This document shows positions 4,866 to 63,771 of a stretch of 64,000 nucleotides of DNA, one piece after another. Source of the DNA: a plasmid. The notes under the pieces were generated by a model that saw only the letters and a list, made by a program, of their open reading frames with translations, was not told the origin of the DNA and searched no databases. A program made the position numbers and the translations under genes. The first letter of the stretch is position 1. The number at the start of each line of letters is the position of its first letter. Location: sequence record NZ_CP090684.1; one strand, written 5' to 3'.

Positions 4866-8110
<3,245 letters not shown>

Positions 8111-8205
8111 TCACCGGACGGGCCGCGCGGCCGGTCACCCGGCCGACCGGAAAGCAGGCCGCATAGCGGGCCGCCAGTCGCGCCACGGCGCACGCGTATT
8201 GCTGC

Positions 8206-41985: not shown

Positions 41986-42423
41986 TTAAACGTCCCTCAC
42001 AGGGGGCAGAACATGGATCTTTCCAGAAGCTACCGCCTGCAGCGTTGCAATCTCCTGACGCAGTGTTTCATTAATCGACGCCAGCGTCGCGACATCAGCC
42101 AGTGCAGCGTCTCGCTCCGCGCGGACGGTCTTCAGCTGTTCTCTTACCTTCTTGACCTCCGCAACCGTGGCGTCGCGCTGCTGCCGAATGCCGCGGCCGA
42201 CTTGAGTGCGGATCTCTTCGGCGATGTCGGGGTACGTATTGTGAATGAGGCCGGCGCTTACGCCAGCCTCCGCCGCGACGGAGGAGATGCTCAATTTCAG
42301 TCCCCTCGTCTTGACCCGGAGGATCGCCAGCTGTAGCGCTTCGCGCGTCTTCCCTCTGCTACGGCGCCGGGGCGCCGACCCGGGCCGCGTATCGTCGGGC
42401 GAGGTGCCTGCACGGCTGCTCAT
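41986..42423 (-). CDS. Small HTH + coiled-coil protein, fourth gene of the recombinase operon (GinD-like)
   Basis: 145 aa; LSISSVAAEAGVSAGLIHNTY HTH-like, C-terminal heptad-rich region; start overlaps the stop of the upstream recombinase. Confidence 0.55.
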   Translation of the reverse strand: MSSRAGTSPDDTRPGSAPRRRSRGKTREALQLAILRVKTRGLKLSISSVAAEAGVSAGLIHNTYPDIAEEIRTQVGRGIRQQRDATVAEVKKVREQLKTVRAERDAALADVATLASINETLRQEIATLQAVASGKIHVLPPVRDV

Positions 42424-44372
42424 GCTCCCTCCAGCGCGGCAGTGTACGCCCGGGCCCGGTCATCGGTCGGCAGCGCACAGCCGAGATCCCGCAGCACCTG
42501 CGTCGAGCGCTCCACCACGCGCCGCGCCTTATCGGCCACTGCGGGACCGCAGTCGGTGATCGCAGCTAGCCGCAGGTTGTCCAGGTGAATCATCTGCCAG
42601 GCAGATGCTTGCCCCTGGTCGATGATGGCCTGCGAGCACCCCGCGCACATTGATGGGTCGTACACCCCCTGGCCGTGACATCCTCGCGTACCACTGATGC
42701 ACCACGCGTGTCCGGTGCTGCGCAGTTCGATCGACTCGGCGGTTTGTCTCAGGAGTTGCTTGAGGTCGCGTGCGGCACGCGTGCGCGTCTGCATGATCTT
42801 CTTGCCGGCACCCCCGCTGAGCAGCGCATCGGAATGCGCCCAACTTTCCAGCAGCCCCAGCCGCGCGTCGGCCATTTCCTCCTCGAACTCGCGATATAGG
42901 GCGTGATCCTGGTGCGGGCTGGCAGCGTAGAGCTGCGTCCACGACATCGACGCATGTTTGAGTTGCCACTTCAGGAAGACGAGGCCCATTCGGCCCAACC
43001 GCGAGTTCGCGACGTTGTACGCGAAGGTGCGGCGGCACTGATGGTTGGCCAGGTTCCACTCTGTCCCGGCGGCCGCGGCCAATTGCTTCAATTGGTACCC
43101 GCAGGATGCTGAACTCAGCACCTCGACCCGCGAACCGGTTCCCAGATGATCCGAGGCTTTCACGTTCAGTCCTAGAACCAGATGCCGGCCGATCTCTCGC
43201 ACATGGTTCAGGCGGTGCGCGGCCTCAGCCATTTTCATGCCGTTGCACAGGTGGCCGGTGAGATCGGGGCCCTGCGCCATCAGGTCTTCGAGCCATCGCG
43301 CCTCGCCGACCAACCGTGCTTGGAGCGGTTGGGCGTAGCGCTGCAGGATCTCAAGCGCGCGAATAGCCTCCGGCGGCACCAGAAAGTCGACCTCGGTTCC
43401 GCCGGTCGTCTTGACTTCGCGCGTGCGCACCCAGTGATACGTCACGCCGTTGCGCTGTTCGGTACGCCAACATCCGCTGGTCACGCCGGTGCTCTCCGAG
43501 TTGCGCATTCCGGAGGAGATCTGCAAGAGGTATAGGACCGCATTGCGGATCGAAGTCATTGCGGGGCGCTTGGGCGCCCCGAGCCCGCCCGCGTCTCGAG
43601 CCTGAAACAGCTCGTCCGCCTGCGCAAGACTGGCCTCGCAGTAGGCGAAAAGTATGCGCTGCACCGACCGCGGGATCACGGGGGTCGTGCCGGTCCGCCC
43701 TGACGGCATCCGATTATCTTCATTGCCGCCACATGCATCCCAAAGGGCGAGCCCCGCCCACGGGTGCTCGAGCAACGGGTGCAGGACTTCCGTATGGAAC
43801 GTCCAGACCAGGTCGACAATTTGCAGCCGACCACGCACCGACACGGGCTTGAGCGTACGCCGCAAATCCGCGATGTGGTCAGACAGGTGCAGAGCTCGTA
43901 CCTGACTGAAGTCGGCCAGCCCCAATTGTGCGAGATATCTCAGAGCCAGGACGCCCGAGCGGCCAATATCCGCTATCGAGCTGCCGGACCACTTTCGCCC
44001 GTGGGGGCCGCGTCGCTGAGCACAATAGAGTGCCGCCTTGGCATCGTCGATCAGTGCTTTCGGTACGTCGTCCGGCCAAACGATCTTCAGGGCCGAACCC
44101 TTGCGGTTCTTCGCCTCGATCTCCGGCGCGAGGTCCCAGACCCGATCACCGAAACGACTCACTGGATGCTCGTGGCCTGCGGCATCGGCCACGGCAGTCA
44201 CCACGATAGCGTCACGTTCGGCCGGCGGAATGCCGACCAGGCTGATCGGCTGAGCCGCCAGCAACTCGAAGGCCCGCAGGGCACGTGGGGCGGGCAAGGA
44301 TGTGGCCGGCACGGCGCGAGCCCCAGATAGCGTTTGGGGCGTGTCAAGGATCGAGGCAGAGGTACTTCTCAT
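42420..44372 (-). CDS. Large tyrosine recombinase (third of trio; GinC-like)
   Basis: 650 aa; C-terminal catalytic region ...LKHASMSWTQLY... (H-x-x-R...Y pattern); overlaps neighbours by 4 nt at both ends. Confidence 0.75.
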   Translation of the reverse strand: MRSTSASILDTPQTLSGARAVPATSLPAPRALRAFELLAAQPISLVGIPPAERDAIVVTAVADAAGHEHPVSRFGDRVWDLAPEIEAKNRKGSALKIVWPDDVPKALIDDAKAALYCAQRRGPHGRKWSGSSIADIGRSGVLALRYLAQLGLADFSQVRALHLSDHIADLRRTLKPVSVRGRLQIVDLVWTFHTEVLHPLLEHPWAGLALWDACGGNEDNRMPSGRTGTTPVIPRSVQRILFAYCEASLAQADELFQARDAGGLGAPKRPAMTSIRNAVLYLLQISSGMRNSESTGVTSGCWRTEQRNGVTYHWVRTREVKTTGGTEVDFLVPPEAIRALEILQRYAQPLQARLVGEARWLEDLMAQGPDLTGHLCNGMKMAEAAHRLNHVREIGRHLVLGLNVKASDHLGTGSRVEVLSSASCGYQLKQLAAAAGTEWNLANHQCRRTFAYNVANSRLGRMGLVFLKWQLKHASMSWTQLYAASPHQDHALYREFEEEMADARLGLLESWAHSDALLSGGAGKKIMQTRTRAARDLKQLLRQTAESIELRSTGHAWCISGTRGCHGQGVYDPSMCAGCSQAIIDQGQASAWQMIHLDNLRLAAITDCGPAVADKARRVVERSTQVLRDLGCALPTDDRARAYTAALEGA

Positions 44373-46270
44373 GCCCTGGGTCCTGCCTGCTGCGTTCCGC
44401 GAATCCGCGGTATCGCCGTATCGCCGTGCGAGCCATCAACGCGCAGATCCGGCGCTGACGCACGGTGTCGTGCGCGGCGGCTCATGGTCATCTGGTGCTG
44501 CCAGTAAGGGTGCAAGCCCGAGACGGTCTTGGCGCGGGCCTGCGCGACCCGGCTGCGCGCGAATTGGCGTTGCGTGAAGTCGTCGATGTAGGGGATGACC
44601 ACCCGGTATCGGTCGCGCAGGTCCTCAAGCAGTCCGTCGGTCGTGCGCTCCGGACCCAAGGCTTCGTCAAGGTAGTCGAGTTCGGCCTGCGCGAACATCT
44701 GAAAGCTGAACAAGCGCCAGAGTTCGTCCACGGTGCCGACGATCGCGAAGCTCGAGCAGAACAAGCACATGACGTAGCGATCGCAGTGGCTGCGGCCATC
44801 ATTCGGCGCATGCTCGCCGCTGATCGAGTCCGAGCATGCGGAGACGGGCGTCGGGCTTGGCGGGGCGCTTATGCTGCCTTTGCCGACCTTGAAAGGTTCC
44901 ACTTGCACTGGCCGAATCTCATTCCCCCTCGGAGCCTGTGCTTCGGCCCGCATCAAAACGGTATAGTCGCCGTTCATGAAGCTCGCTGCATCGGCCTTGC
45001 GCGCCTCATTCATCGACGGGTAATTCACTCCGGCGACCCTCGGTGTGTTGCCCATCAGGTTGGCGGTGATGGCTATGTCGCCGTCGGCGGTACGCAGAGC
45101 ACGGTCGAAGCGGCTCTTACGCAGGCGACTCAGGTTGACGCGCAACGGCAGGCCGCCGTCTCCCAGTAGACTGCGGCGTTCGATGACGCCTTCGATTGCC
45201 CTGTTGAGGGACTTGCTGTCGAGGCACGTGATGTTGCCCCTCTTTGTCGACCCTGCACTTGCTTCAGCGCGATACAGCCAGATCCGTGTCTTGAACGCGG
45301 ATGGCGCCTCACCCACCAGTTCGCGGGTGCTTGCGATGGCCTGCTGCAAGACTGCGCCCTCGGAGAGGTCGAAGCAAAGGTTCTGCTCGTCAGCTTGCTC
45401 GTTCGGTTGATTTGATGCGTGCCGTCCAAGAGCGGAGCGGCCAACATTGGAACGAATCTTCTTGCTGCGGTGCTTTGCAGTACGAATTAGGATCGTGCCA
45501 GGCAGAAATCCCGGCGCTAAGGCATCGCGGCACATTTCGAGCAGGGGCGTCGGGTTGAGCCCTTGACGGTGTGCCACCAACAACAGCCTGAGTCCCTGCA
45601 CGGCACTTTGCTTCAGTTGCAAGCGGCCGTGGTGAACATCAACGAGGTCGGACTTGATCGCCTTGGCCAGGCGCTCTTGCTCCGCGTCACTCAGGCTAGT
45701 CTGCAGGCTGTCTTCGCTGCTCCAGGGCAACGCGCCGCGCCGGAAGAAGCGAGAAGGCTCGCCCTCGATGAAGCCCTGCGCGAACATTTCGGCGAGTACG
45801 GCCTTGACCCCCCTGTAGGTATTGCGCGTCGAACTCGGTCGCCAGCCTTCAGCCTGAGCTCGCTTCTGCAACCATCCGATGAAATGCTGGACATGCATCG
45901 GGGAAAGGTCCGACGGCAACTTGGGTCGCTGGGGCAGCGGGGTTTGCGAACTGCCCGCGAGGTACTCGAACAGGTAAGGCAGCTGCCCGAAGTACGTGGT
46001 GACGGAGGCTGTCGCGCGTGCACCCGAGAGCAGCATCGCCTTGAGGCAGAAGCCCGATGAGCATACCCAGTCGTCGATGCCTCGGCCCAGCCAGTCACGA
46101 AGGTCGAGCGTCTTGATTCTCTGAGGAAAGCGTGCCTCGAGCCCCAACAGCGCGACCATGTCGATGCAGGCGTCGTCGGCGCCGGGCTTCGGCCGTTCGA
46201 GTGATGCCGATATGACACCGACCGGTGCGGCGCGATTCTCGCTGACGTTGTAGTTCTTCTTTCTGACCAT
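44369..46270 (-). CDS. Large tyrosine recombinase (second of trio; GinB-like)
   Basis: 633 aa; phage-integrase-family C-terminus (...LMGNTPRVAGVNY...). Confidence 0.75.
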   Translation of the reverse strand: MVRKKNYNVSENRAAPVGVISASLERPKPGADDACIDMVALLGLEARFPQRIKTLDLRDWLGRGIDDWVCSSGFCLKAMLLSGARATASVTTYFGQLPYLFEYLAGSSQTPLPQRPKLPSDLSPMHVQHFIGWLQKRAQAEGWRPSSTRNTYRGVKAVLAEMFAQGFIEGEPSRFFRRGALPWSSEDSLQTSLSDAEQERLAKAIKSDLVDVHHGRLQLKQSAVQGLRLLLVAHRQGLNPTPLLEMCRDALAPGFLPGTILIRTAKHRSKKIRSNVGRSALGRHASNQPNEQADEQNLCFDLSEGAVLQQAIASTRELVGEAPSAFKTRIWLYRAEASAGSTKRGNITCLDSKSLNRAIEGVIERRSLLGDGGLPLRVNLSRLRKSRFDRALRTADGDIAITANLMGNTPRVAGVNYPSMNEARKADAASFMNGDYTVLMRAEAQAPRGNEIRPVQVEPFKVGKGSISAPPSPTPVSACSDSISGEHAPNDGRSHCDRYVMCLFCSSFAIVGTVDELWRLFSFQMFAQAELDYLDEALGPERTTDGLLEDLRDRYRVVIPYIDDFTQRQFARSRVAQARAKTVSGLHPYWQHQMTMSRRARHRASAPDLRVDGSHGDTAIPRIRGTQQAGPRA

Positions 46271-46278
46271 GGCGTCGC

Positions 46279-47514
46279 TCAGTGTCGAGGATCGACTGTG
46301 GATGCATGCGGCGCCGTGGCCAATGCTTTGCCAACCCCGTAGAGCCGGTCAAACTCGTCCATCATCGCGAGCGCCTCTGCGCCCAGCAGCCGCTCTATCT
46401 GCTGCAAATACACCATGGTGGTCTGGACACTCGCGTGGCCGAGGCGGTCGCGGACGTACATGAGCGGCTCCATCGGTATCTCGGGACGGCTGCGAAGCAG
46501 CAGCAGGGTATGAATCGCGTAGCTGTGGCGCAGCATGAGCGGGCGCACCCGGAAGCCCACCGTGTTGCTGAGATCGGTGTAGACCTTCACCGCGGATTCC
46601 TTGCTGTAGCGTTGCCCGTGAATCGTCAGGATCAGTTCCTTGCGGTCTGCCGCGTCGGCAAGACCGTTGCGCTCGAATGTCGTATATGCGTACATGTCCT
46701 CCATCAGGCTGTATGGCACGTGCACAACGCGGGACTTGTTGAACTTGATCTCCATGTCCCGTGGGTCGAGGCGCACGTCGATAAAGGTGCCTGGCTTCCA
46801 AGCCTTTTGGGTCCGTGGATCAACCACGTACGACAGCGGGAAGGTACGTGCCTCGACTGAGCGCAAACCCACCCGCGCCATCAGGTCGAACAGCAGCCGC
46901 TGCGCTGCAGAGCGAATCGATTGCCGCACGATCTTCAGTTGATCGGCTGTCAGGAACGCAGGTTCCTTGTTCCACTCGTTGAGCAGCACTGCCGGACGGC
47001 TCGACCTCTTCCGACCGCCGGTGATATGAGTCAGGTCATGCTCAATGCCGTACACTGCGACGTCGGAACAGGTGAAGGGCAAGCGGTCGATCCGCCCGCG
47101 TTCATGTGCCCACCGGTACATTGCCGTGACCAATTCCAACCGGGCGTTGATGGTTGCGGGGTCCAGCTTGAGGTCTTGGGCCTGCCAATCGCGGTAAACA
47201 CTGACGACGCTCTGCCCAACCGACATGAATGGATCGTCCCAACACCATTCGTTCGCTTGTAGAAATCGAGCGAAATCCCATAGCCGGCGACCGTACGCCT
47301 CCCACGTCTTTTGATCAAGCGCCTTTCCGCTCTCAAGCAATCGGTACAGCAGGTAGTCATGGAACGGTTGCGCCGGCTCCATCGAATCGTCGAGGATCAA
47401 GGGGAATCCCGGCCGCGGGCGTCCGGCGAAGACAAACTCATCAGTGGCGCGTACGTACCTCACGCGCTGGCCTCGCGCAACATCTTCGCTGCTTGCTTGA
47501 ATGGCACGCGCCAT
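46279..47514 (-). CDS. Tyrosine recombinase (first of trio; GinA-like)
   Basis: 411 aa; LRHSYAIHTL...GHASVQTTMVYLQ (R..H-x-x-R...Y catalytic motifs). Confidence 0.8.
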   Translation of the reverse strand: MARAIQASSEDVARGQRVRYVRATDEFVFAGRPRPGFPLILDDSMEPAQPFHDYLLYRLLESGKALDQKTWEAYGRRLWDFARFLQANEWCWDDPFMSVGQSVVSVYRDWQAQDLKLDPATINARLELVTAMYRWAHERGRIDRLPFTCSDVAVYGIEHDLTHITGGRKRSSRPAVLLNEWNKEPAFLTADQLKIVRQSIRSAAQRLLFDLMARVGLRSVEARTFPLSYVVDPRTQKAWKPGTFIDVRLDPRDMEIKFNKSRVVHVPYSLMEDMYAYTTFERNGLADAADRKELILTIHGQRYSKESAVKVYTDLSNTVGFRVRPLMLRHSYAIHTLLLLRSRPEIPMEPLMYVRDRLGHASVQTTMVYLQQIERLLGAEALAMMDEFDRLYGVGKALATAPHASTVDPRH

Positions 47515-47669
47515 TGGCGCATCACGAGGTCGTCGGCACCGTCAGCAATCGCGCGCGCCGCGAGGCAATGCAGCCGCCCTATTTCCGGATCATCCATAGG
47601 TTGCCAAATCTCCCCCGAATTCCATCCCGCTACTCGACTTCAAGAAATTGAATAGCAGTACACAGGACG

Positions 47670-47846
47670 ATGTCTGTCAACCCATTTATTACTAACAAAA
47701 CGAGGTATTCGTACCGATGCATCGTGCCGATCAAATCGTCGAACGTCGACGCATGGCTGGCGCCGGATCCGTCTCGCCGCGCGCAGCTGCGCGAGATCCT
47801 CGCCGATCGCGAACGGCCCTACTACGAGCACCAACTGGCGGCGTAA
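47670..47846 (+). CDS. Unannotated 58-aa ORF between the recombinase operon and the LexA box (possibly 3' remnant of the island target gene)
   Basis: AGGACG then ATG 47670: MSVNPFITNKTRYSYRCIVPIKSSNVDAWLAPDPSRRAQLREILADRERPYYEHQLAA; just below the track's 60-aa cutoff; lies in a lower-GC junction. Confidence 0.25.
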   Translation: MSVNPFITNKTRYSYRCIVPIKSSNVDAWLAPDPSRRAQLREILADRERPYYEHQLAA

Positions 47847-47886: not shown

Positions 47887-47902
47887 CTGTATAAACATAC
47901 AG
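47887..47902. promoter_or_regulatory. LexA (SOS) box CTGTATAAACATACAG upstream of imuA
   Basis: Perfect CTGT-N8-ACAG palindrome 19 bp before the imuA ATG. Confidence 0.7.
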
Positions 47903-47920
47903 TGCCAGAACCCCACGACC

Positions 47921-48637
47921 ATGCAAGCCGCTCTTGCCCATCCTGAAACCATCCATCCCGCGCTCTGGCGTGCCAGCCAGCTGGCGCGCTCGAGCTCGCG
48001 CGGCGTCGACACGGGGCACGCTGAGCTGACCGCCGAGCTACCCGGCGGCGGCTGGCCCGCGGGCGCGCTGGTCGATTTGCTGACGCAGCAGGCCGGCATC
48101 GGCGAGCTCCGGCTACTCGCGCCTGTACTGGCGCGCTCGAGCGGCCGACCGATCATGCTGATCCAGCCGCTGCACGGGCTGCAGCCGCTGGCGCTGTCGT
48201 ATTGGGGTGTCGATTCGTCCAGCTTCGTCCTGCTGCCTGCCCCGCGCACCGCCGACGCACTGTGGGCCGCCGAGCAGGTGCTGCGCGCCGGCACGTGCGC
48301 GGCTGTCCTGCTGTGGCAGTCAAACGTGCGCGCGGACGCGCTGCGGCGTCTGAACCTGGCCGCGCAAACCGGATCCGCACTGTTTTTCCTGTTCCGGCCG
48401 GCGGCCGCCGCACGCGACGCGTCGCCGGCGCCATTGCGGCTCGCGCTGGCCCCCAAGCGCGACGGCATCGAGATCACGTTCGTGAAGCGCCGCGGACCCG
48501 CGCGCGATACGCCGTTGTTCGTCCCGTTGTCCCCTTCGCCGATTTTGTTGAATCGCCATGCAAGTCTGGATCGGCGTGCATCTGCCGCACCTCAACCTCG
48601 AAACGTTCCGGCCACGCTCGCCGGCGCCATCGCCTGA
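47921..48637 (+). CDS. imuA: ImuA (SulA/RecA-fold protein of the mutagenesis cassette)
   Basis: Track ORF 47717..48637; ATG 47921 directly after the SOS box; followed by imuB and dnaE2 with an overlap. Confidence 0.7.
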   Translation: MQAALAHPETIHPALWRASQLARSSSRGVDTGHAELTAELPGGGWPAGALVDLLTQQAGIGELRLLAPVLARSSGRPIMLIQPLHGLQPLALSYWGVDSSSFVLLPAPRTADALWAAEQVLRAGTCAAVLLWQSNVRADALRRLNLAAQTGSALFFLFRPAAAARDASPAPLRLALAPKRDGIEITFVKRRGPARDTPLFVPLSPSPILLNRHASLDRRASAAPQPRNVPATLAGAIA

Positions 48638-50036
48638 CGATGCGCGCGGTCTCGTCGTGCTCGAGAGCGGCCGTGTCGTGGCGCTGGACCGTGCCGCGCG
48701 CGCGCTCGGCATCGTCGTCGGCATGCGGCGCGCCGGCGTGCTGTCGCTCGCGCCCGACGCACAGATCCGCGAGCGCGACGTCGTGCGAGAACGCGAACTC
48801 GTGCTCGGCGTCGCGTACGCGCTGCTGCAGTTCACGCCGAACGTCGTCGACGCTGACGAAGCAGTGGTACTGCTCGACGTGACGGCCAGCCTGCGCCTTT
48901 TCCATGGCATTCGCGCGCTGCGCCGGCGCGTGCGCGACGTCGTCGCGTCGTTCGGCGTCTCCGCGGCAATCTCCGTCGCGTCGACAGGCCCGGCCGCATG
49001 GATGGTCGCGCGCGGGCTGCGCGGCGGCCTCGCGCTGTCTGCCCGGTCATTGCGCCGCGCGCTCGCGCGCGTGCCGCTCGTGGTCGCCCCTGATGCGCGG
49101 CGGTACGCGACGTGGTTCGACGAGCTCGGCTGCGAAACGCTGGCGGACCTGCAGCGCCTGCCCCGCGCCGGGCTCAAGAAGCGTTGCGGCACGCAGCTGC
49201 TCGACTGGCTCGACCAGGTGGCCGGCACTGCGCCGGCGGCCTATGACTGGCTCGACATGCCGCCGTCGTTCGACACGCGCGTCGAGCTGATGGACCGCGT
49301 CGAGCACGCCGAGGCGCTGTTGTTTGTCGCGCGCCGGCTGATCCTGCAGCTGACCGGTTGGCTCACGGCGAAGCAGCTGGACGTCGCAGCATTCGCGCTG
49401 CTGCTCGAGCACGAGCGCGGACGCGACGCGATTGCGCCGACCGAGATCGAGATTTCGCTGGGCGCCCCCACGCGCTTCGAAGAGCACCTGACCCGGCTCG
49501 TCAAGGAGCGGCTTGGCCATGTCGAGCTCGCCGGGCCCGTGATCGCCGTGCGGCTCGTCGCGCGACGCGTGCAGGAAGCGGCCGCGCCGAGCGATTCGTT
49601 GTTCCCGGAACCCGGCGGCACGCCGCAGGATCACGCTCGATTGCTGGAACTGCTCACCGCGCGCCTCGGCGCAGAGAATGTGCTGGTCCCGGCTCCCATA
49701 GCCGACTACCGTCCGGAGCCGGCCGCCCGATGGGTGCCGATGCGCGACGCGCCGAAGGCGGCACCGCTGCCGGCGGATTTGCCGCGCCCCGCCTGGCTGC
49801 TCGCCAAGCCGGTGCCGCTGCTCACGCGCCAACACCGGCCGTTCTACGGTACACCGCTGCGCATGGTGTCGCCTGGCGAGCGTATCGAAGGCGGATGGCA
49901 GGACGGGCAGACTGTGACGCGCGACTACTTCGTTGCCGAGGACGACAACGGCATCTGCTACTGGATCTTCAAGGAGCGGCCGACGGCCAGCGACGAAAGC
50001 GACTCGCGCTACTTTCTGCACGGCCTGTTCGGTTGA
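48558..50036 (+). CDS. imuB: ImuB (Y-family polymerase-like protein)
   Basis: MQVWIGVHLPHLNLETF...; UmuC/DinB-like fold; overlaps imuA by 80 nt. Confidence 0.8.
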   Translation: MQVWIGVHLPHLNLETFRPRSPAPSPDDARGLVVLESGRVVALDRAARALGIVVGMRRAGVLSLAPDAQIRERDVVRERELVLGVAYALLQFTPNVVDADEAVVLLDVTASLRLFHGIRALRRRVRDVVASFGVSAAISVASTGPAAWMVARGLRGGLALSARSLRRALARVPLVVAPDARRYATWFDELGCETLADLQRLPRAGLKKRCGTQLLDWLDQVAGTAPAAYDWLDMPPSFDTRVELMDRVEHAEALLFVARRLILQLTGWLTAKQLDVAAFALLLEHERGRDAIAPTEIEISLGAPTRFEEHLTRLVKERLGHVELAGPVIAVRLVARRVQEAAAPSDSLFPEPGGTPQDHARLLELLTARLGAENVLVPAPIADYRPEPAARWVPMRDAPKAAPLPADLPRPAWLLAKPVPLLTRQHRPFYGTPLRMVSPGERIEGGWQDGQTVTRDYFVAEDDNGICYWIFKERPTASDESDSRYFLHGLFG

Positions 50037-50042
50037 TTCGCG

Positions 50043-53000
50043 ATGAGCGCTGCGAGCTACGGCGCCCTGCCCGCCTATGCGGAGCTGCAGGTCGCCAGCG
50101 ACTTCTCGTTTCTGCACGGCGCGTCGCGCGCCGAGGAATACGTGGCGCGCGCGGCACAGCTCGGCTACAGCGCGATCGCGATCACCGATGAGTGCTCGCT
50201 CGCCGGCGTCGTGCGCGCGCACGTCGAAGCGAAGGCAGCCGGCCTGCCTCTGATCATCGGCTCGCACTTCCGGCTGACGGCCGCCGACGGCGCGCCGGCG
50301 ATCGCGTTCAGCGCGCTCGCGATGAATCGCGACGGCTACGGCAACCTCTGCGAACTGGTGTCGCTCGGCCGTATGCGCGGCAAGAAAGGCAGCTACCGGT
50401 TGGCGCCGCGCGATCTCGAGCAGCCGGACGCGCCATTCACGCATCTGCGCGGCTTGCCCGACTGCATTGCGATCCTGTCGCCCGACTTCCCGGCCAATGA
50501 GCAGCGGCTCGACGCGCAGGTCGAATGGTTCGCGCGCGTGTTCGGCGATCGCGCATGGGTCGCGCTCACGCTGCATGCGCGTGCGATGGACGATATCCAC
50601 CGCGGTGTCGTTGAACGCGTCGCCGCGCGCCACGGCGTGCCGGTGGTCGCAACCAGCTGGCCGCTGATGCATGTGCGATCGCGCAAACCGCTGCAGGACG
50701 TTCTGACGTCAATCCGGCTGGGGCGGCCGGTGTCCGAGTGCGGATACGAGCTCGCGCCGAATGCAGAGCGGCATTTGCGATCGCGCTTGCGGCTTGCCAA
50801 CCTCTACCCGGCCGGCGCGCTCGAGGAGACCGTGCGGGTCGCGCGGCGCTGCACGTTCTCACTCGACGACCTGAAGTACGAATATCCGGACGAGGTGGTT
50901 CCAGCCGGCTACGACGTCGCGACCTACCTGCGCGAACAGACGTATATCGGTGCGCAGCGGCGCTTTCCGGCCGGCATTCCGGTCGACGTGCAGGCGCAGA
51001 TCGAACACGAGCTGCAGTTGATCGCGGAACTGAACTACGAGGCGTATTTCCTGACCGTCTACGACATCGTGCAATTCGCGCGTCAGAACGGCATCTTGTG
51101 CCAGGGCCGCGGGTCGGCGGCGAACTCCGCCGTCTGCTACTGCCTCGGCATGACGGAGGTCGATCCCTCCCGTCAGTCGATGCTGTTCGAGCGGTTCATG
51201 AGCAAGGAGCGCAACGAGCCGCCGGACATCGACGTCGACTTCGAGCATCAGCGTCGCGAAGAGGTGATGCAGTACATCTACCGCAAGTACGGCCGCGATC
51301 GCGCGGCGCTGACCGCGGCCGTCAGCACGTACCGACCGCGCAGCGCATTGCGCGAGGCCGGCAAAGCGCTCGGCGTGGATCCGGCGATCGTCGATCGGGT
51401 CGCCAAAAGTCACCACTGGTTCGACTCGCGCGCGGATCTGCTCCAGCGTTTCGCCGAAGCCGGTCTCGATCCCGAGGCGCCGCTCAATCAGCAGTGGGCC
51501 GCGTTCGCCGCTCAGCTGCTCGGCTACCCGCGCCATCTGTCGCAGCACTCGGGTGGCTTCGTGATCAGCCGCGGCAAGCTCACGCGACTCGTGCCGGTCG
51601 AGAATGCCGCGATGGAAGATCGCACGATCATCCAGTGGGACAAGGACGATATCGAAGCGCTCGGCATCCTGAAAATCGACGTGCTCGCGCTCGGCATGCT
51701 GTCGATGGTGCGCCGCGCGCTCGACATGATCTCGGAGAAGCGCGGCGAAACGTTTGAGCTGCAGGACATACCGGCCGAAGACAAAGCGACCTACGACATG
51801 CTGTGCGACGGCGACAGCATGGGCGTATTCCAGGTCGAGTCGCGCGCGCAGATGTCGATGCTGCCGCGCCTACGGCCGCAATGCTTCTACGATCTCGTGA
51901 TCGAGGTCGCGATCGTTCGACCCGGCCCCGTGCAGGGCGGCATGGTGCATCCATATCTCCGCCGCCGGCAGGGACTTGAGCCCGTCACGTTCCCTTCAGA
52001 CGGCATGGAAAAGGCGCTGAAGCGCACGCTCGGCGTGCCGATCTTCCAGGAGCAGGTGATGCAGGTCGCCATGCTTGCGGCCGGCTTCTCCGCCGGCGAG
52101 GCCGATCAGCTGCGACGTGCGATGGCGGCATGGAAACGCAAGGGCGGCCTCGAGCCATACCACGATCGGCTCGTGAGCGGCATGCTCGAGCGCGGCTACG
52201 ATCGCGAATTCGCCGAGGCGATCTTCGCGCAGATCAAGGGCTTCGGCGAGTACGGGTTTCCGGAGAGCCATGCGGCCAGCTTCGCGTTGCTCGTCTACTC
52301 GAGCGCGTGGTTGCGCCGGCACGAGCCGGCCGTGTTTCTGGCCTCGTTGCTCAACAGTCAGCCGATGGGCTTCTATACACCATCGCAGCTGCTGCAGGAC
52401 GCGCGACGCCGTGGCGTTGAAGTATTACCTGTCGACGTGAACGTGAGCACGTGGGATTCAGTCATCGAGGGGCCGACGACCTCGGCGCCGGTGCGTCTCG
52501 GATTCTCACTGCTGCGCGGCATGCGCGCGGACGTCGCCGGCCGCATCGAGCTCGCGCGCGCGGTGCGGCCGTTCGTCGACGTCGCGGATCTCGCTCGACG
52601 GGCGCAGCTCGATCGGCACGACCTGCAGGTACTCGCCCGCGCGAACGCGCTGCGCTCGCTCGCCGGCGGCAATCGTCGCGCCGCGCTGTGGCTGGCGGCC
52701 GCGGCGATCCCCGATCGGGATCTGTTGCGCGGCACTGAGCGTGACGACGCCGTGCCGGCGCTGCCGCAGGCGTCGGAAGGCAAGGAGATTGTGACCGACT
52801 ATCGCGCGATGGGCTTCACGCTCGGCCGGCACCCACTGGCGCTGCTGCGCGATCGTCTGACGCTCGATCGTTTGCAGTCGGCCGAGCAGCTGGCAACGTT
52901 ACGCAGCGGCCAGCTCGCGCGCGCATGCGGACTGGTCACCGTGCGACAACGGCCGGGCACGGCCAACGGCGTGCTGTTCATGACGCTCGAGGACGAGACG

Positions 53001-53192
53001 GGCCAGGTGAACGTGATCCTGTGGCCCGGTCTGCTGGAGAAGTTTCGCAAGGAGGCGCTAGGCGCGGCGCTCCTCGCGGTCTACGGTGTATGGCAGGCCG
53101 AGGGGAAGGTGCGGCACTTGATCGCGAGCAAGCTCGTCGACCGGAGCGAATTGCTCGGCTCGCTGCCGACGACGGCAAGGGAGTTTTGTTGA
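50043..53192 (+). CDS. dnaE2: Error-prone DNA polymerase DnaE2 (ImuC)
   Basis: 1049 aa; N-terminal PHP domain (VASDFSFLHGASRAEEY), Pol III alpha core, OB-fold C-terminus. Confidence 0.9.
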   Translation: MSAASYGALPAYAELQVASDFSFLHGASRAEEYVARAAQLGYSAIAITDECSLAGVVRAHVEAKAAGLPLIIGSHFRLTAADGAPAIAFSALAMNRDGYGNLCELVSLGRMRGKKGSYRLAPRDLEQPDAPFTHLRGLPDCIAILSPDFPANEQRLDAQVEWFARVFGDRAWVALTLHARAMDDIHRGVVERVAARHGVPVVATSWPLMHVRSRKPLQDVLTSIRLGRPVSECGYELAPNAERHLRSRLRLANLYPAGALEETVRVARRCTFSLDDLKYEYPDEVVPAGYDVATYLREQTYIGAQRRFPAGIPVDVQAQIEHELQLIAELNYEAYFLTVYDIVQFARQNGILCQGRGSAANSAVCYCLGMTEVDPSRQSMLFERFMSKERNEPPDIDVDFEHQRREEVMQYIYRKYGRDRAALTAAVSTYRPRSALREAGKALGVDPAIVDRVAKSHHWFDSRADLLQRFAEAGLDPEAPLNQQWAAFAAQLLGYPRHLSQHSGGFVISRGKLTRLVPVENAAMEDRTIIQWDKDDIEALGILKIDVLALGMLSMVRRALDMISEKRGETFELQDIPAEDKATYDMLCDGDSMGVFQVESRAQMSMLPRLRPQCFYDLVIEVAIVRPGPVQGGMVHPYLRRRQGLEPVTFPSDGMEKALKRTLGVPIFQEQVMQVAMLAAGFSAGEADQLRRAMAAWKRKGGLEPYHDRLVSGMLERGYDREFAEAIFAQIKGFGEYGFPESHAASFALLVYSSAWLRRHEPAVFLASLLNSQPMGFYTPSQLLQDARRRGVEVLPVDVNVSTWDSVIEGPTTSAPVRLGFSLLRGMRADVAGRIELARAVRPFVDVADLARRAQLDRHDLQVLARANALRSLAGGNRRAALWLAAAAIPDRDLLRGTERDDAVPALPQASEGKEIVTDYRAMGFTLGRHPLALLRDRLTLDRLQSAEQLATLRSGQLARACGLVTVRQRPGTANGVLFMTLEDETGQVNVILWPGLLEKFRKEALGAALLAVYGVWQAEGKVRHLIASKLVDRSELLGSLPTTAREFC

Positions 53193-53229
53193 TGGTGCTC
53201 TAGCAAGCCAGAGCGCCCGACGCGAAGCT

Positions 53230-61458: not shown

Positions 61459-63771
61459 TCACCACGTCCAGCGCTCACCGGCCACTTCGGCCCACGCCTC
61501 GCTCTCCGACGCACACCGATGCTGTTCTGCGGTCATCGCGATCTGAACAAGCAGGTCATCGACGCGCCGATCGAACGCATCTTGGTTGTCAAATGGCACC
61601 TGTAGCACGGTCACACCGTCTCGGATCGGCGTCCGCCCGAACCCGGCCAGTACTTCACGTTCGACGCGCTCGAGGACGCGTGCGCGACCACGCCCGCCCG
61701 GCCGCTTCGGCTCGACCCGCAGCTTCACGTGCACGGCGACGAGTTGGGCCGCTGCGCCCGTGTCCGCCCGGGCAGGCGGCGACGCGACCGGCACGCCCAT
61801 GGCCGCCGGCGGATCCGCGCGATCGAGCGCGGCGTTGAACAACGCCTCGACCGACTGGAACTGGCGTACCGCATCCGCCTTTGTATATAGCGTGGTGGTC
61901 CCTAGGCTGGCATGACCGAGCAACTCCTGCATGTCTCGTATGTCCGCGCCGGCGTCCAGGCCATGGTTCGCGAAAGTGTGGCGCAACCAGTGCGTGCTCG
62001 CACGGCGCAAGTCCGCCGCCGCGTTCGGATACGTGGCGGCCAACTGATCCGCCGCCCGCGCAAAAATCCCCTTGTAGAGCCGTCCGACCACGTCCGGATG
62101 CAGTGCTTCGCCGGTCACCAGGTTCGCGATGAGCGGCGTATCGGCCGGCGCGGTTTCGAGCGTCAGCGGAATCGGGCGGGCGCGCAGCTGCGCGCGCAGC
62201 GCGTCGATGAGTCGCCGCGGCATCGGCACAGTGCGTGCGCGCCGGCCCTTGCCCATCACCTTCAGGCTCCACGCATCGTCGAGCGCGCCATCGAGCGCGG
62301 TGCGCGTGAGTGCGCCGGTGGTCGCGGCGGCGATTTCAGCCCGTCGCAGTCCGGTGACGTAGGCAAACAACAGCAGGAACGCGTCGCGCGCGTTTGCAGC
62401 CTGATTCGCTGACCGATTCGCCAGTTGGGAGTCGCCGCCATCGAAGGCCGACGTAGGGCGCAGCACCGTCTGCAGCACATACTGCCACTGCGCACGCGTG
62501 AGCGAGCGCCCGGTCGCGTCGATCGGTACCGAGGGCGCGGCCGGAAGTCCAGCGAACGGATTCACACGCAGATACTGCTGGGCAACCAACCATTCGCCCA
62601 TCGCATTCAGGATCCGCCGCGCGGTGTCGCGGCTGCGTTCGGACAGCGGCCCGACGAACGGTCGCCATGCGGGATCGAAACGCTCGACGCGGCTGCGGCC
62701 GATCCAGCGCGCAGCGGGTTGCGGGTCGCGCAGGAACACGTCGAGATATTCCGCGCAGTCCATCGTATTCAACGACGACAGCGGCTTGCCCTTCGCGACG
62801 ATCGCCCACAGCAGCAATCGCTCGGCTTCGCGCCGGTACGCGCGGCGGGTCGCTTCGCTGCGCGCGCCGCGCGTCGCGATCCAGGCATGTACCGCCTGCA
62901 GGTCGGTGTTCAGTTCGGCCTGGTGCGCAGGCACAGGTGCACGGTTCAGGCCGGCCGAGCCGTCGAGGGCGGCTGGCACGCGCAGCGCCTCGAGCGGCGC
63001 CACGTCGGCAGCAGCGCCCGGTAGCGGCTGCAGCGCCGGGTGACCCGGTGCGAAATGCCGACGCGGCGTGACGGCGAGAGGCGAAAGGTACCCAAGCGTG
63101 TCCGGGTGTTGCGCAATGAAGTCGGTAATGCGCTGCGCGCCGATCGCGCCCAGGCGCGGTATCGCGCGGTACCACCGTTGGCGCCGTGTACGCATCAGCG
63201 CGAGCAGCTCGGCGAACGTCGTGATGCCGGCCGCCGCGAGCCGTGCGACCACGCGCGAGTCGAACCAGCCGTCGAGCGTGTGGTCGGGCCGCGGCGCCTC
63301 GACGAGACTGGCCTCCATGCGCGCGAGTGCGGCGTCCTGGCGATCGCGTAGTCGACGATTGCGCGCGGTCTTGCTATCGAGCGCGGGCGACGACGCCGGC
63401 GGGTAGGTCTCGATATACAGCGCGACGAGCTCCCGCTCGCTGTAGAACGCGTCCGGATCCACCTCGGCCCGGAACTCCTCGAGCGTCGGCACTTCCCGGC
63501 CGGCCGCGGCGCCGGCGTGCGCGTCGCGCGGCAGGCTACCAGGTTTCAGGCGTAGCAGGTGCGCGGCGTCGACGTCGCGCGCGCGCCGCGCGGCGATCGT
63601 GAGCGTATCGCGCAGCGTCGCGATCGTGCGGCGCGTCACGCGCACGTCGGTCCCCGGCACGCCGTAGTGCGCATGCAGCGTCGCTTCGTCGAGCCCTTCG
63701 AGGTACGCTCGGTACAGCGCGAAGTGGCCCGGGGTCAGGCGCAGCGTTGCGCGAGCGGGTGAAGCACGCAC
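61459..63771 (-). CDS. Large tyrosine recombinase / integrase (770 aa)
   Basis: HWLRHTFANH...LGHASLGTTTLYT catalytic region; GTG start whose first codon abuts the stop of a truncated membrane-protein ORF. Confidence 0.85.
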   Translation of the reverse strand: MRASPARATLRLTPGHFALYRAYLEGLDEATLHAHYGVPGTDVRVTRRTIATLRDTLTIAARRARDVDAAHLLRLKPGSLPRDAHAGAAAGREVPTLEEFRAEVDPDAFYSERELVALYIETYPPASSPALDSKTARNRRLRDRQDAALARMEASLVEAPRPDHTLDGWFDSRVVARLAAAGITTFAELLALMRTRRQRWYRAIPRLGAIGAQRITDFIAQHPDTLGYLSPLAVTPRRHFAPGHPALQPLPGAAADVAPLEALRVPAALDGSAGLNRAPVPAHQAELNTDLQAVHAWIATRGARSEATRRAYRREAERLLLWAIVAKGKPLSSLNTMDCAEYLDVFLRDPQPAARWIGRSRVERFDPAWRPFVGPLSERSRDTARRILNAMGEWLVAQQYLRVNPFAGLPAAPSVPIDATGRSLTRAQWQYVLQTVLRPTSAFDGGDSQLANRSANQAANARDAFLLLFAYVTGLRRAEIAAATTGALTRTALDGALDDAWSLKVMGKGRRARTVPMPRRLIDALRAQLRARPIPLTLETAPADTPLIANLVTGEALHPDVVGRLYKGIFARAADQLAATYPNAAADLRRASTHWLRHTFANHGLDAGADIRDMQELLGHASLGTTTLYTKADAVRQFQSVEALFNAALDRADPPAAMGVPVASPPARADTGAAAQLVAVHVKLRVEPKRPGGRGRARVLERVEREVLAGFGRTPIRDGVTVLQVPFDNQDAFDRRVDDLLVQIAMTAEQHRCASESEAWAEVAGERWTW

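Follow-up and report, generated by a model that had tools for sequence, protein, structure and literature searches.

A probable strand-biased circularizing integrative element with metal-resistance cargo on a Burkholderia multivorans plasmid

Introduction

SEs (strand-biased circularizing integrative elements) carry intA, a degenerate tfp, intB and srap as their core genes (Idola et al. 2023, PMC10214605). In GInts, the catalytic ginA and ginB are followed by a degenerate ginC and then by ginD (Bardaji et al. 2017, PMC5385486). SE and GInt proteins cluster separately, and homologues of Tfp or Srap were found neither in Alpha- or Betaproteobacteria nor otherwise outside the Gammaproteobacteria (Idola et al. 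2023, PMC10214605). Here we analyse 64,000 nucleotides of a plasmid (sequence record NZ_CP090684.1; this whole stretch is called the window below), in which a four-gene recombination module adjoins metal-resistance genes. Positions 41986-47720 comprise, in all likelihood, the recombination module and the intA-proximal end of a metal-resistance element of SE type, about 49.3 kb long, on a Burkholderia multivorans plasmid.

A preliminary description of the window had recognised that the module is neither a phage integrase nor a recombinase-in-trio (RIT) element, and that a module of four genes, three of them for tyrosine recombinases, stands at one end of a cargo-carrying island. This holds, and the island is integrated site-specifically. 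It had also taken the four genes for the ginABCD operon of a GInt. The GInt label is wrong, because the proteins show no similarity to Gin proteins; all four match SE proteins instead. The SE family itself is already known. What is new is its host range and its target repertoire. In the literature we found no description of this island, of betaproteobacterial SEs, or of pTGL1/pBMUL01. Lan et al. (2023) described a Burkholderia metal island that is Tn7-like and distinct from ours.

Results

Four genes with SE counterparts

The minus strand holds four co-oriented open reading frames (ORFs), at 46279-47514 (411 aa), 44369-46270 (633 aa), 42420-44372 (650 aa) and 41986-42423 (145 aa), as had been described. 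The 4-nt overlaps reported for the whole series are present between the second and third and between the third and fourth ORFs; a gap of 8 nt (46271-46278) stands between the first and second. By homology, the four ORFs are real genes and not chance ORFs of GC-rich DNA, because their homologues reach E-values of 2e-27 to 5e-140 and form a collinear block in 68 of 80 related loci. They occupy one end of the element as intA, tfp, intB and srap, in this order. The operon is transcribed from 47.5 kb towards 42 kb and hence into the cargo, not away from it as first described.

The four proteins match those of the SE on the Pseudomonas mendocina plasmid pPME5 (NZ_CP013125.1) one-to-one and collinearly. 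IntA (46279-47463, minus strand) is a tyrosine recombinase of ordinary size, 394 aa when read from the GTG at 47463, with 43.5% identity to its pPME5 counterpart (E 2e-107). Tfp (44369-46270, minus strand; 633 aa) has a tyrosine-recombinase fold with a degenerate active site and is 30.9% identical to WP_010794484.1 (E 3e-81). IntB (42420-44372, minus strand) is a large tyrosine recombinase of 650 aa with a complete catalytic set (38.8% identity, E 5e-140). Srap (41986-42423, minus strand; 145 aa), an auxiliary protein, appears to join an N-terminal TetR-like helix-turn-helix to a C-terminal coiled coil and is 50.5% identical to WP_008567186.1 (E 2e-27). Idola et al. 2023 (PMC10214605) give both accessions in their Additional file 3, the former as a Tfp orthologue and the latter as a Srap orthologue.

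Our reference loci were pAQU1, pPME5 and the GInt of E. coli Sakai. The blastp reference set held 12 sequences, so that its E-values are meaningful for pPME5 and not for the weak matches to pAQU1. Hence, in place of the latter, we rely on tblastn searches of plasmids and on profile comparisons of Tfp with hhalign. In 7.3 Gb of plasmid sequence, matches to Tfp coincide with tfp genes listed by Idola et al. (NZ_CP013125.1 162119-163735, NZ_CP039989.1 229378-230994 and NZ_CP033067.1 78429-80081) and also reach a listed Pseudoalteromonas Tfp (E 8e-16). IntB reaches a Vibrio alfacsensis plasmid in the same kind of search (E 3e-10). The Tfp profile matches the Tfp of the experimentally validated SE-Pda04Ya311 with an hhalign probability of 92.9% (E 3.7e-7).

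The same profile gives 0.6% probability against GinC and 0.4% against GinB. By blastp, the four proteins have no corresponding match at E<1 in ginABCD of E. coli Sakai, and yield only noise against the published GinA, GinB and GinC fragments of P. stutzeri DSM 4166. The comparison proposed earlier as a check of the GInt identity is thus negative, and the other known module to which the genes point is the SE. From intA to srap, Pfam gives a hit, none, a hit and none in both the window and the pPME5 SE, and two hits followed by none and none in the E. coli Sakai GInt. In the validated SE of pAQU1, IntA alone scores. Altogether we consider the element very probably an SE.

Ends, target site and cargo

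The island junction had been expected at about 47560-47720, and this proved right. Motif C, the intA-proximal terminal inverted repeat, forms the element end at 47692-47714; it reads GTACGAATACCTCGTTTTGTTAG on the element top strand, which is the minus strand of the window. A 6-bp crossover spacer follows at 47715-47720 (CGATGC on the plus strand, GCATCG on the element top strand). Homology with plasmids that carry the empty site stops at motif C. The spacer register could be off by one base.

The other end lies left of the window, as had been supposed. Positions 1-22000 and 21900-53196 of the window are collinear with NZ_CP143553.1 at 99.3-99.45% identity, and in this near-identical plasmid the far end, which holds motif C' and attR, is reached about 1.63 kb to the left of position 1. 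In NZ_CP143553.1 the 5' part of the target gene occupies record positions 61740-63052, the left junction is at 63042-63052, and window position 1 corresponds to 64683. In that plasmid the island thus spans about 49.3 kb, from about 1.63 kb beyond the left edge of the window to 47714. The far-end motif C' (ATCTGAATACTATTAGCCGTTAG) was read in two near-identical plasmid loci (L003 and L010). C and C' pair imperfectly, at 12 of 23 positions (GAATAC...GTTAG), and C' is close to the C' of the pPME5 SE, with CTAAC…ATTCAGAT in common.

Comparing the ends for direct repeats, as had been suggested, reveals an 11-bp repeat, ACCGATGCATC, at 47713-47723 and at the far junction; the empty site holds a single copy. 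In L003 the far end was seen to be AT-richer. The tripartite GInt layout has imperfect flanking direct repeats, 10-17 nt long, and a far end rich in AT, and both features are found here. SEs have this layout too, and thus it does not discriminate between the two families. Written on the element top strand, attL of the window is GGCACGAT-GCATCG-GTACGAATACCTCGTTTTGTTAG..., attR of the near-identical plasmids is ...CTAACGGCTAATAGTATTCAGAT-GCATCG-GTCGTGTCC, and the empty site is GGCACGAT-GCATCG-GTCGTGTCC.

The target is a gene for a SOS-response-associated peptidase (YedK-like), which is antisense to intA. Its 3' remnant lies at 47721-47846 on the plus strand (the reading frame was checked), and the insertion point falls into the peptidase codons H-D-R-C-I-V. 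The gene is uninterrupted in NZ_CP090750.1 (positions 7220-8134 of locus L001) and in NZ_CP090789.1, which represent empty sites with imuA-imuB-dnaE2 downstream. Other B. multivorans plasmids match the window only from 47713 onward. A gene of the H-NS family stands just upstream of the peptidase gene, both in an interrupted locus (L003 1304-1627) and in an empty one (L001 6762-7085).

Within the window the cargo occupies 1-41985: czc/cus-type RND efflux systems, a P-type ATPase, an ars operon, cop genes, dsbD and two-component sensors. The annotation of near-identical plasmids, with two RND metal-efflux systems, bears out the metal-resistance cargo of the preliminary description, and no insertion sequence or other integrase is annotated inside it.

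Movement between plasmids

A query of 5.9 kb, spanning module and junction, is 99.8-100% identical in six plasmids: two from B. multivorans and one each from B. vietnamiensis, B. aenigmatica and the Burkholderia strains MBR-1 and IDO3. The first 22 kb of the window's cargo are 99.2-99.3% identical in the same six. Accessions for exactly these four proteins belong to a 167-kb plasmid, that of B. multivorans ATCC 17616, and the proteins are found on 414-663 contigs. The module is 85-86% identical in B. ambifaria MC40-6 and Burkholderia sp. JP2-270.

The insertion nucleotide is identical in every junction that was checked, including one in a target allele of only 78% identity. Two element variants use it at both junctions, JP2-270 uses it at attL only, and it is also used in B. 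metallica. Judged from these junctions, the island has entered at least two diverged peptidase alleles in different plasmids.

The B. vietnamiensis plasmid NZ_CP091982.1 has the island in the 78% allele. Its attL spacer is ACACCT, which encodes Arg-Cys in the synonymous codons of the host, and its attR spacer is GCATCG, the B. multivorans type. Both host flanks belong to the 78% allele, and divergence sets in within 7 nt of the spacer. Import by flanking homology is therefore ruled out for this plasmid. A host-type attL combined with a donor-type attR is the footprint described for SEs (Idola et al. 2023, PMC10214605), and the spacers suggest that the island of NZ_CP091982.1 came from a B. multivorans-type site. 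The MC40-6 element likewise has two spacers, ACACCA at attL and GCACCG at attR. Those of the pPME5 SE in umuC (attL GCAACG, attR ACAACG) differ by one base under the 6-bp register. We think it highly probable that the element moved recently by its own site-specific recombination. It has no transfer genes, and several of its host plasmids are typed as conjugative.

Elements at the same site carry other cargo. On plasmid pBMC401 of MC40-6 (L004 2123-7130), with both junctions in the peptidase gene, the cargo is a CBASS anti-phage system and an ImmA/IrrE-HTH pair (HTH, helix-turn-helix). The JP2-270 element (L005 3615-11632) carries an opine-type catabolic cluster; attL alone lies in the target gene, and the flank of the far end is rearranged.

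Start of intA and catalytic residues

The conserved N-termini of homologues favour the GTG at 47463 as the start of intA, and hence a protein of 394 aa; the 411 aa of the preliminary description are those of the maximal ORF from 47514. In the public annotation intA begins at 47400 (373 aa) and a separate 45-aa ORF is placed at 47460-47597, and here too the homologues favour GTG 47463. Between intA and the element end lies a conserved leader (47624-47691, minus strand) with a TTGACA hexamer at 47675-47680 on the minus strand. The leader is kept among the elements of the window, B. ambifaria MC40-6 and B. metallica, which diverge elsewhere. It may hold a promoter, recombinase binding sites, or both. 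The terminator-like hairpin directly 3' of srap does not exceed what is expected by chance.

The preliminary description had seen catalytic motifs in each of the first three proteins. This is fully true of IntB, nearly true of IntA, and only partly true of Tfp. Counts of conservation below come from family alignments of 68-75 distinct members. Pfam Phage_integrase matches IntA at 1.5e-8 and the C-terminal part of IntB at 1.1e-5, just under the cut-off. Tfp has no match in Pfam, NCBIfam or a single-sequence search of the PDB, the single-sequence PDB search of IntA is empty, and the NCBIfam results agree with Pfam for all four proteins.

IntB aligns with XerA across HxxR..H..Y and has R290, K321, H444, R447, H473 and Y482, together with the cysteines C558, C565, C576 and C579; each residue is kept in at least 69 of 71 members. 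IntA (numbered on the 411-aa ORF) has R218, K257, R329, H360 and Y369, with L326 at the His II position. Leucine stands at this position in 9 of 68 members and histidine in the remaining 59.

Residues of Tfp were mapped by aligning the family profile with XerA (5hxy, E 1e-4), which places SRLR on HvLR and G-N/H...Y on G-H...Y. The hhalign comparisons of Tfp with IntA and IntB are collinear and statistically weak (probability <10%), and we use them as support for the residue mapping only. Tfp carries N239 at Arg I, K266, S381 at His II, R384, N408 at His III and Y417. N239, K266, R384 and Y417 are invariant (75/75 members), and position 381 is never histidine. By these residues, Tfp is less degenerate than the literature states. 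Its four cysteines are C479, present in 74 of 75 members, and C496, C502 and C505, present in all 75. The C-terminal thirds of Tfp and IntB have the conserved four-cysteine cluster in common, and behind it comes a conserved helix motif, which reads LWRLFSF in Tfp. This region is probably a zinc-binding domain for which there is no Pfam model.

Srap gives weak TetR_N, DUF6262 (TnpC family) and coiled-coil signals, in keeping with the helix-turn-helix and coiled coil first noticed in the 145-aa protein. The DUF6262 match of the window's Srap has an E-value of 0.0035; together with 5 of 10 aligned relatives, it makes 6 of 11 members at E<=0.05 (best 3.3e-4), all below the Pfam cut-off.

Relatives and host range

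Scanning one genome per species with a five-sequence alignment of Tfp returned 80 related loci. All four genes are present in order in 68 of them, and the remainder are mostly cut at contig ends. By record title, 48 of the 80 loci are from Betaproteobacteria and 27 from Gammaproteobacteria. The same four-gene module is found on plasmids of Polaromonas, Diaphorobacter, Paraburkholderia, Cupriavidus sp. P-10 and C. metallidurans CH34 (pMOL28). On this homology, the SE family extends to the Betaproteobacteria, contrary to its published distribution in Gammaproteobacteria only. The pMOL28 module is distant (L016 4554-9739; 22-27% identity), and its middle gene is annotated as a recombinase and has Asn at Arg I.

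Target sites recur among the relatives. In 46 of the 80 loci the module directly follows umuD or codons 1-34 of umuC, and the peptidase/imuA context of the window is shared by B. metallica only. One large clade of Beta- and Gammaproteobacteria might target the SOS-mutagenesis loci of plasmids, either umuC or the peptidase gene of imuABC, but we offer this tentatively and rate it as rather doubtful. The recombinase operon of the umuC-type members would then lie downstream of a promoter under LexA control. In relatives of the umuD/umuC type (e.g. L026 4825-6857) intA lies on the same strand as umuC, opposite to the orientation in the window. With the strand shared, read-through from the SOS-controlled umuDC promoter could drive the recombinase operon of these relatives.

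A cargo-less relative on a Polaromonas plasmid (L012 4248-4370 and 9826-11124) has a full-length umuC directly after srap and a diverged copy of umuC codons 1-34 before intA. The arrangement recurs in loci L024, L025, L028, L037-L040, L042, L070 and L093. Such cargo-less elements seem to bring along a substitute 5' end and thereby to restore the interrupted umuC. One contig of Azohydromonas lata (NZ_BCTC01000016.1 60205-92008; L020 and L023) holds two SE modules that differ from each other and are separated by about 16 kb, possibly as tandem insertions. Complete or partial modules also occur on contigs labelled Streptomyces hayashii (L055), as a metagenome-assembled genome (MAG) of Sulfurimonas (L031) and as a Melainabacteria MAG (L072). 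The Streptomyces and Sulfurimonas modules stand behind a 5' fragment of umuC, as in proteobacterial relatives. These non-proteobacterial contigs most likely reflect contamination or misbinning.

Flanking plasmid sequence

Host sequence outside the element occupies 47887-53192 on the plus strand, with a LexA-type box (47887-47902), imuA (47921-48637), imuB (48558-50036) and dnaE2. The box, CTGTATAAACATACAG, is the only one of its type in the window and lies 19 nt upstream of imuA. The insertion thus leaves imuA-imuB-dnaE2 with an SOS control of its own. At 53188-53196 the similarity to other plasmids breaks off sharply, as though the imu cassette were a separate module. From 53 to 64 kb the window consists of plasmid backbone with RepA and ParB.

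Discussion

Could the four genes nevertheless be ginABCD, the operon with which a GInt begins at its 5' end? What suggested a GInt is there: a four-gene operon read into cargo, the 11-bp direct repeat and the AT-richer far end. GInts have, moreover, been reported in Betaproteobacteria (Idola et al. 2023, PMC10214605). Yet neither the Gin proteins of P. stutzeri DSM 4166 nor those of E. coli Sakai resemble ours, the Tfp profile all but ignores GinC and GinB, and the degenerate protein is the second and not the third of the series. The strong SE matches of all four proteins, set against the separate SE and GInt clusters of the literature, make a GInt extremely unlikely. A Tn554-like transposon or an RIT element is hardly credible. 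The faint DUF6262 signals of Srap and half of its aligned relatives do recall TnpC of Tn554, and a resemblance between Srap and TnpC was also noted by Idola et al. (2023, PMC10214605). But Tn554 elements have no counterpart of Tfp and are known from Firmicutes, and neither of its host genera, Staphylococcus and Enterococcus, is among the ten commonest organism names in the tblastn matches of Tfp and IntB (tails sampled, 60 and 30 rows; the Tn554 proteins themselves were not compared). RIT trios consist of three complete recombinases of ordinary size. They have no fourth gene, whereas here a fourth gene is conserved, the first three proteins measure 394, 633 and 650 aa, and the middle one is without Arg I and His II.

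Alternatively, the module could be a relic, and the island would now owe its spread to the transfer of plasmids and to homologous recombination between them, not to its own recombinases. This would agree with the scan for the attS joint in metagenome contigs, in which the circular form was not seen, and with the Leu at His II of IntA. Flanks are also rearranged: NZ_CP091982.1 has no imuA beside attL, and the attR flank of JP2-270 is not the target gene. However, six plasmids have all four ORFs and both ends in intact form, at 99.8-100% identity, and the flanks in NZ_CP091982.1 are those of the 78% allele to within 7 nt of the spacer. The Leu variant, furthermore, is kept in 9 distinct members, among them same-site elements with different cargo. 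We regard a relic as quite improbable.

An element of SE type is the reading that we favour, and several observations weigh against it. The closest listed SE, that of pPME5, is itself listed but was experimentally untested by Idola et al. Similarity to the validated SEs of Vibrionaceae is remote (20-30% identity) and significant only at the profile level or in parts. Leucine at His II might lower the activity of IntA. A consensus promoter scan gave no site that meets its criteria, and hence no promoter, which is why the function of the leader is inferred only. The window's own spacer is GCATCG at both ends and thus uninformative. The predicted attS joint (..AATAGTATTCAGAT-NNNNNN-GTACGAATACCTCG..) had 10 matches in metagenome contigs, all of them chance matches with unrelated flanks. 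Finally, strand bias is not the only source of mixed spacers. Tn916 recombines by a two-strand exchange that tolerates a mismatched overlap, and half the progeny of such an exchange would equally have a host-type attL and a donor-type attR. Hence the pattern fits strand bias without proving it.

By analogy with SEs in Vibrionaceae, IntA and IntB, aided by their half-degenerate paralogue Tfp and by Srap, would recombine attL with attR into a circular copy. The attS joint of this circle would carry the six bases that adjoin motif C, and no empty site would be left behind. The circle would then integrate at a matching target, with the 6 bp of the target coming to lie beside C and the carried 6 bp beside C'. 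Whether the window copy follows such a strand-biased copy-out is, by this analogy, an even bet. Because the element has no transfer genes, it would travel between cells on the conjugative plasmids that host it.

The conserved residues of Tfp invite a further speculation. Tfp may be a half-active recombinase rather than a dead scaffold, although we think the odds are clearly against it. In a mixed synapse of IntA, IntB and Tfp, a Tfp subunit could restrict exchange to one pair of strands. Flp lends its tyrosine in trans, and Tfp could instead act in this Flp-like manner. If true, a half-active Tfp would account in molecular terms for two unexplained traits of SEs, their strand bias and their copy-out behaviour.

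With this element and 48 betaproteobacterial loci, the SE family is seen to be common in Burkholderiales too. Here an SE would move a 49-kb block of Cu, Ag, Zn, Cd and As resistance between plasmids of Burkholderia species associated with cystic fibrosis. The 6-bp spacers that are carried over make the direction of past transfers readable, in this case from a B. multivorans-type to a B. vietnamiensis-type site. B. multivorans ATCC 17616 offers a tractable strain in which to study the unresolved mechanism of SEs.

How does the element compare with the systems described so far? Transposons of the Tn554 family (tnpA-tnpB-tnpC; Tn6188) share its target specificity and 6-bp footprint. They differ in their Firmicutes hosts and in lacking Tfp, whereas a 633-aa gene stands between two recombinases here. 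The faint DUF6262 signals fit a distant kinship between SEs and Tn554, not membership. GInts (PMC5385486) have four essential recombination genes, three of them integrase-like, at their 5' end, as well as variable cargo and short direct repeats; some members also leave no empty site. They show no detectable sequence similarity to our element, and their degenerate recombinase is the third (GinC) and not the second. GinB of E. coli Sakai has 437 aa, whereas both large proteins of the window exceed 630 aa and have a four-cysteine cluster.

The closest characterised relative is the mer-carrying SE of pPME5, which also occurs in megaplasmids of the pBT2436 type, with protein identities of 31-51%. 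It has a similar C', a metal (mercury) resistance cargo and an insertion locus in plasmid SOS/translesion genes. Its target is umuC after codon 34, oriented as intA, its cargo is about 5 kb, and its IntA keeps His II.

Its four core genes, arranged as intA-tfp-intB-srap at one end, are those of SEs in general (PMC10214605), with the same domain pattern and with a Tfp and a Srap that have homologues among the curated orthologues. Both end in imperfect inverted repeats beside a spacer of 6 bp, are specific for a target site and lack transfer genes, and one copy of our element shows the SE combination of a host-type attL and a donor-type attR spacer. Resistance cargo is of comparable size, with published SEs of up to 58.5 kb. 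The differences are a betaproteobacterial host, a Leu at His II of IntA, terminal motifs of GAATAC..GTTAG instead of the Vibrio-type CACCCnTACGATT, and a target that is the plasmid gene for a SOS-response-associated peptidase, located before imuABC and antisense to intA.

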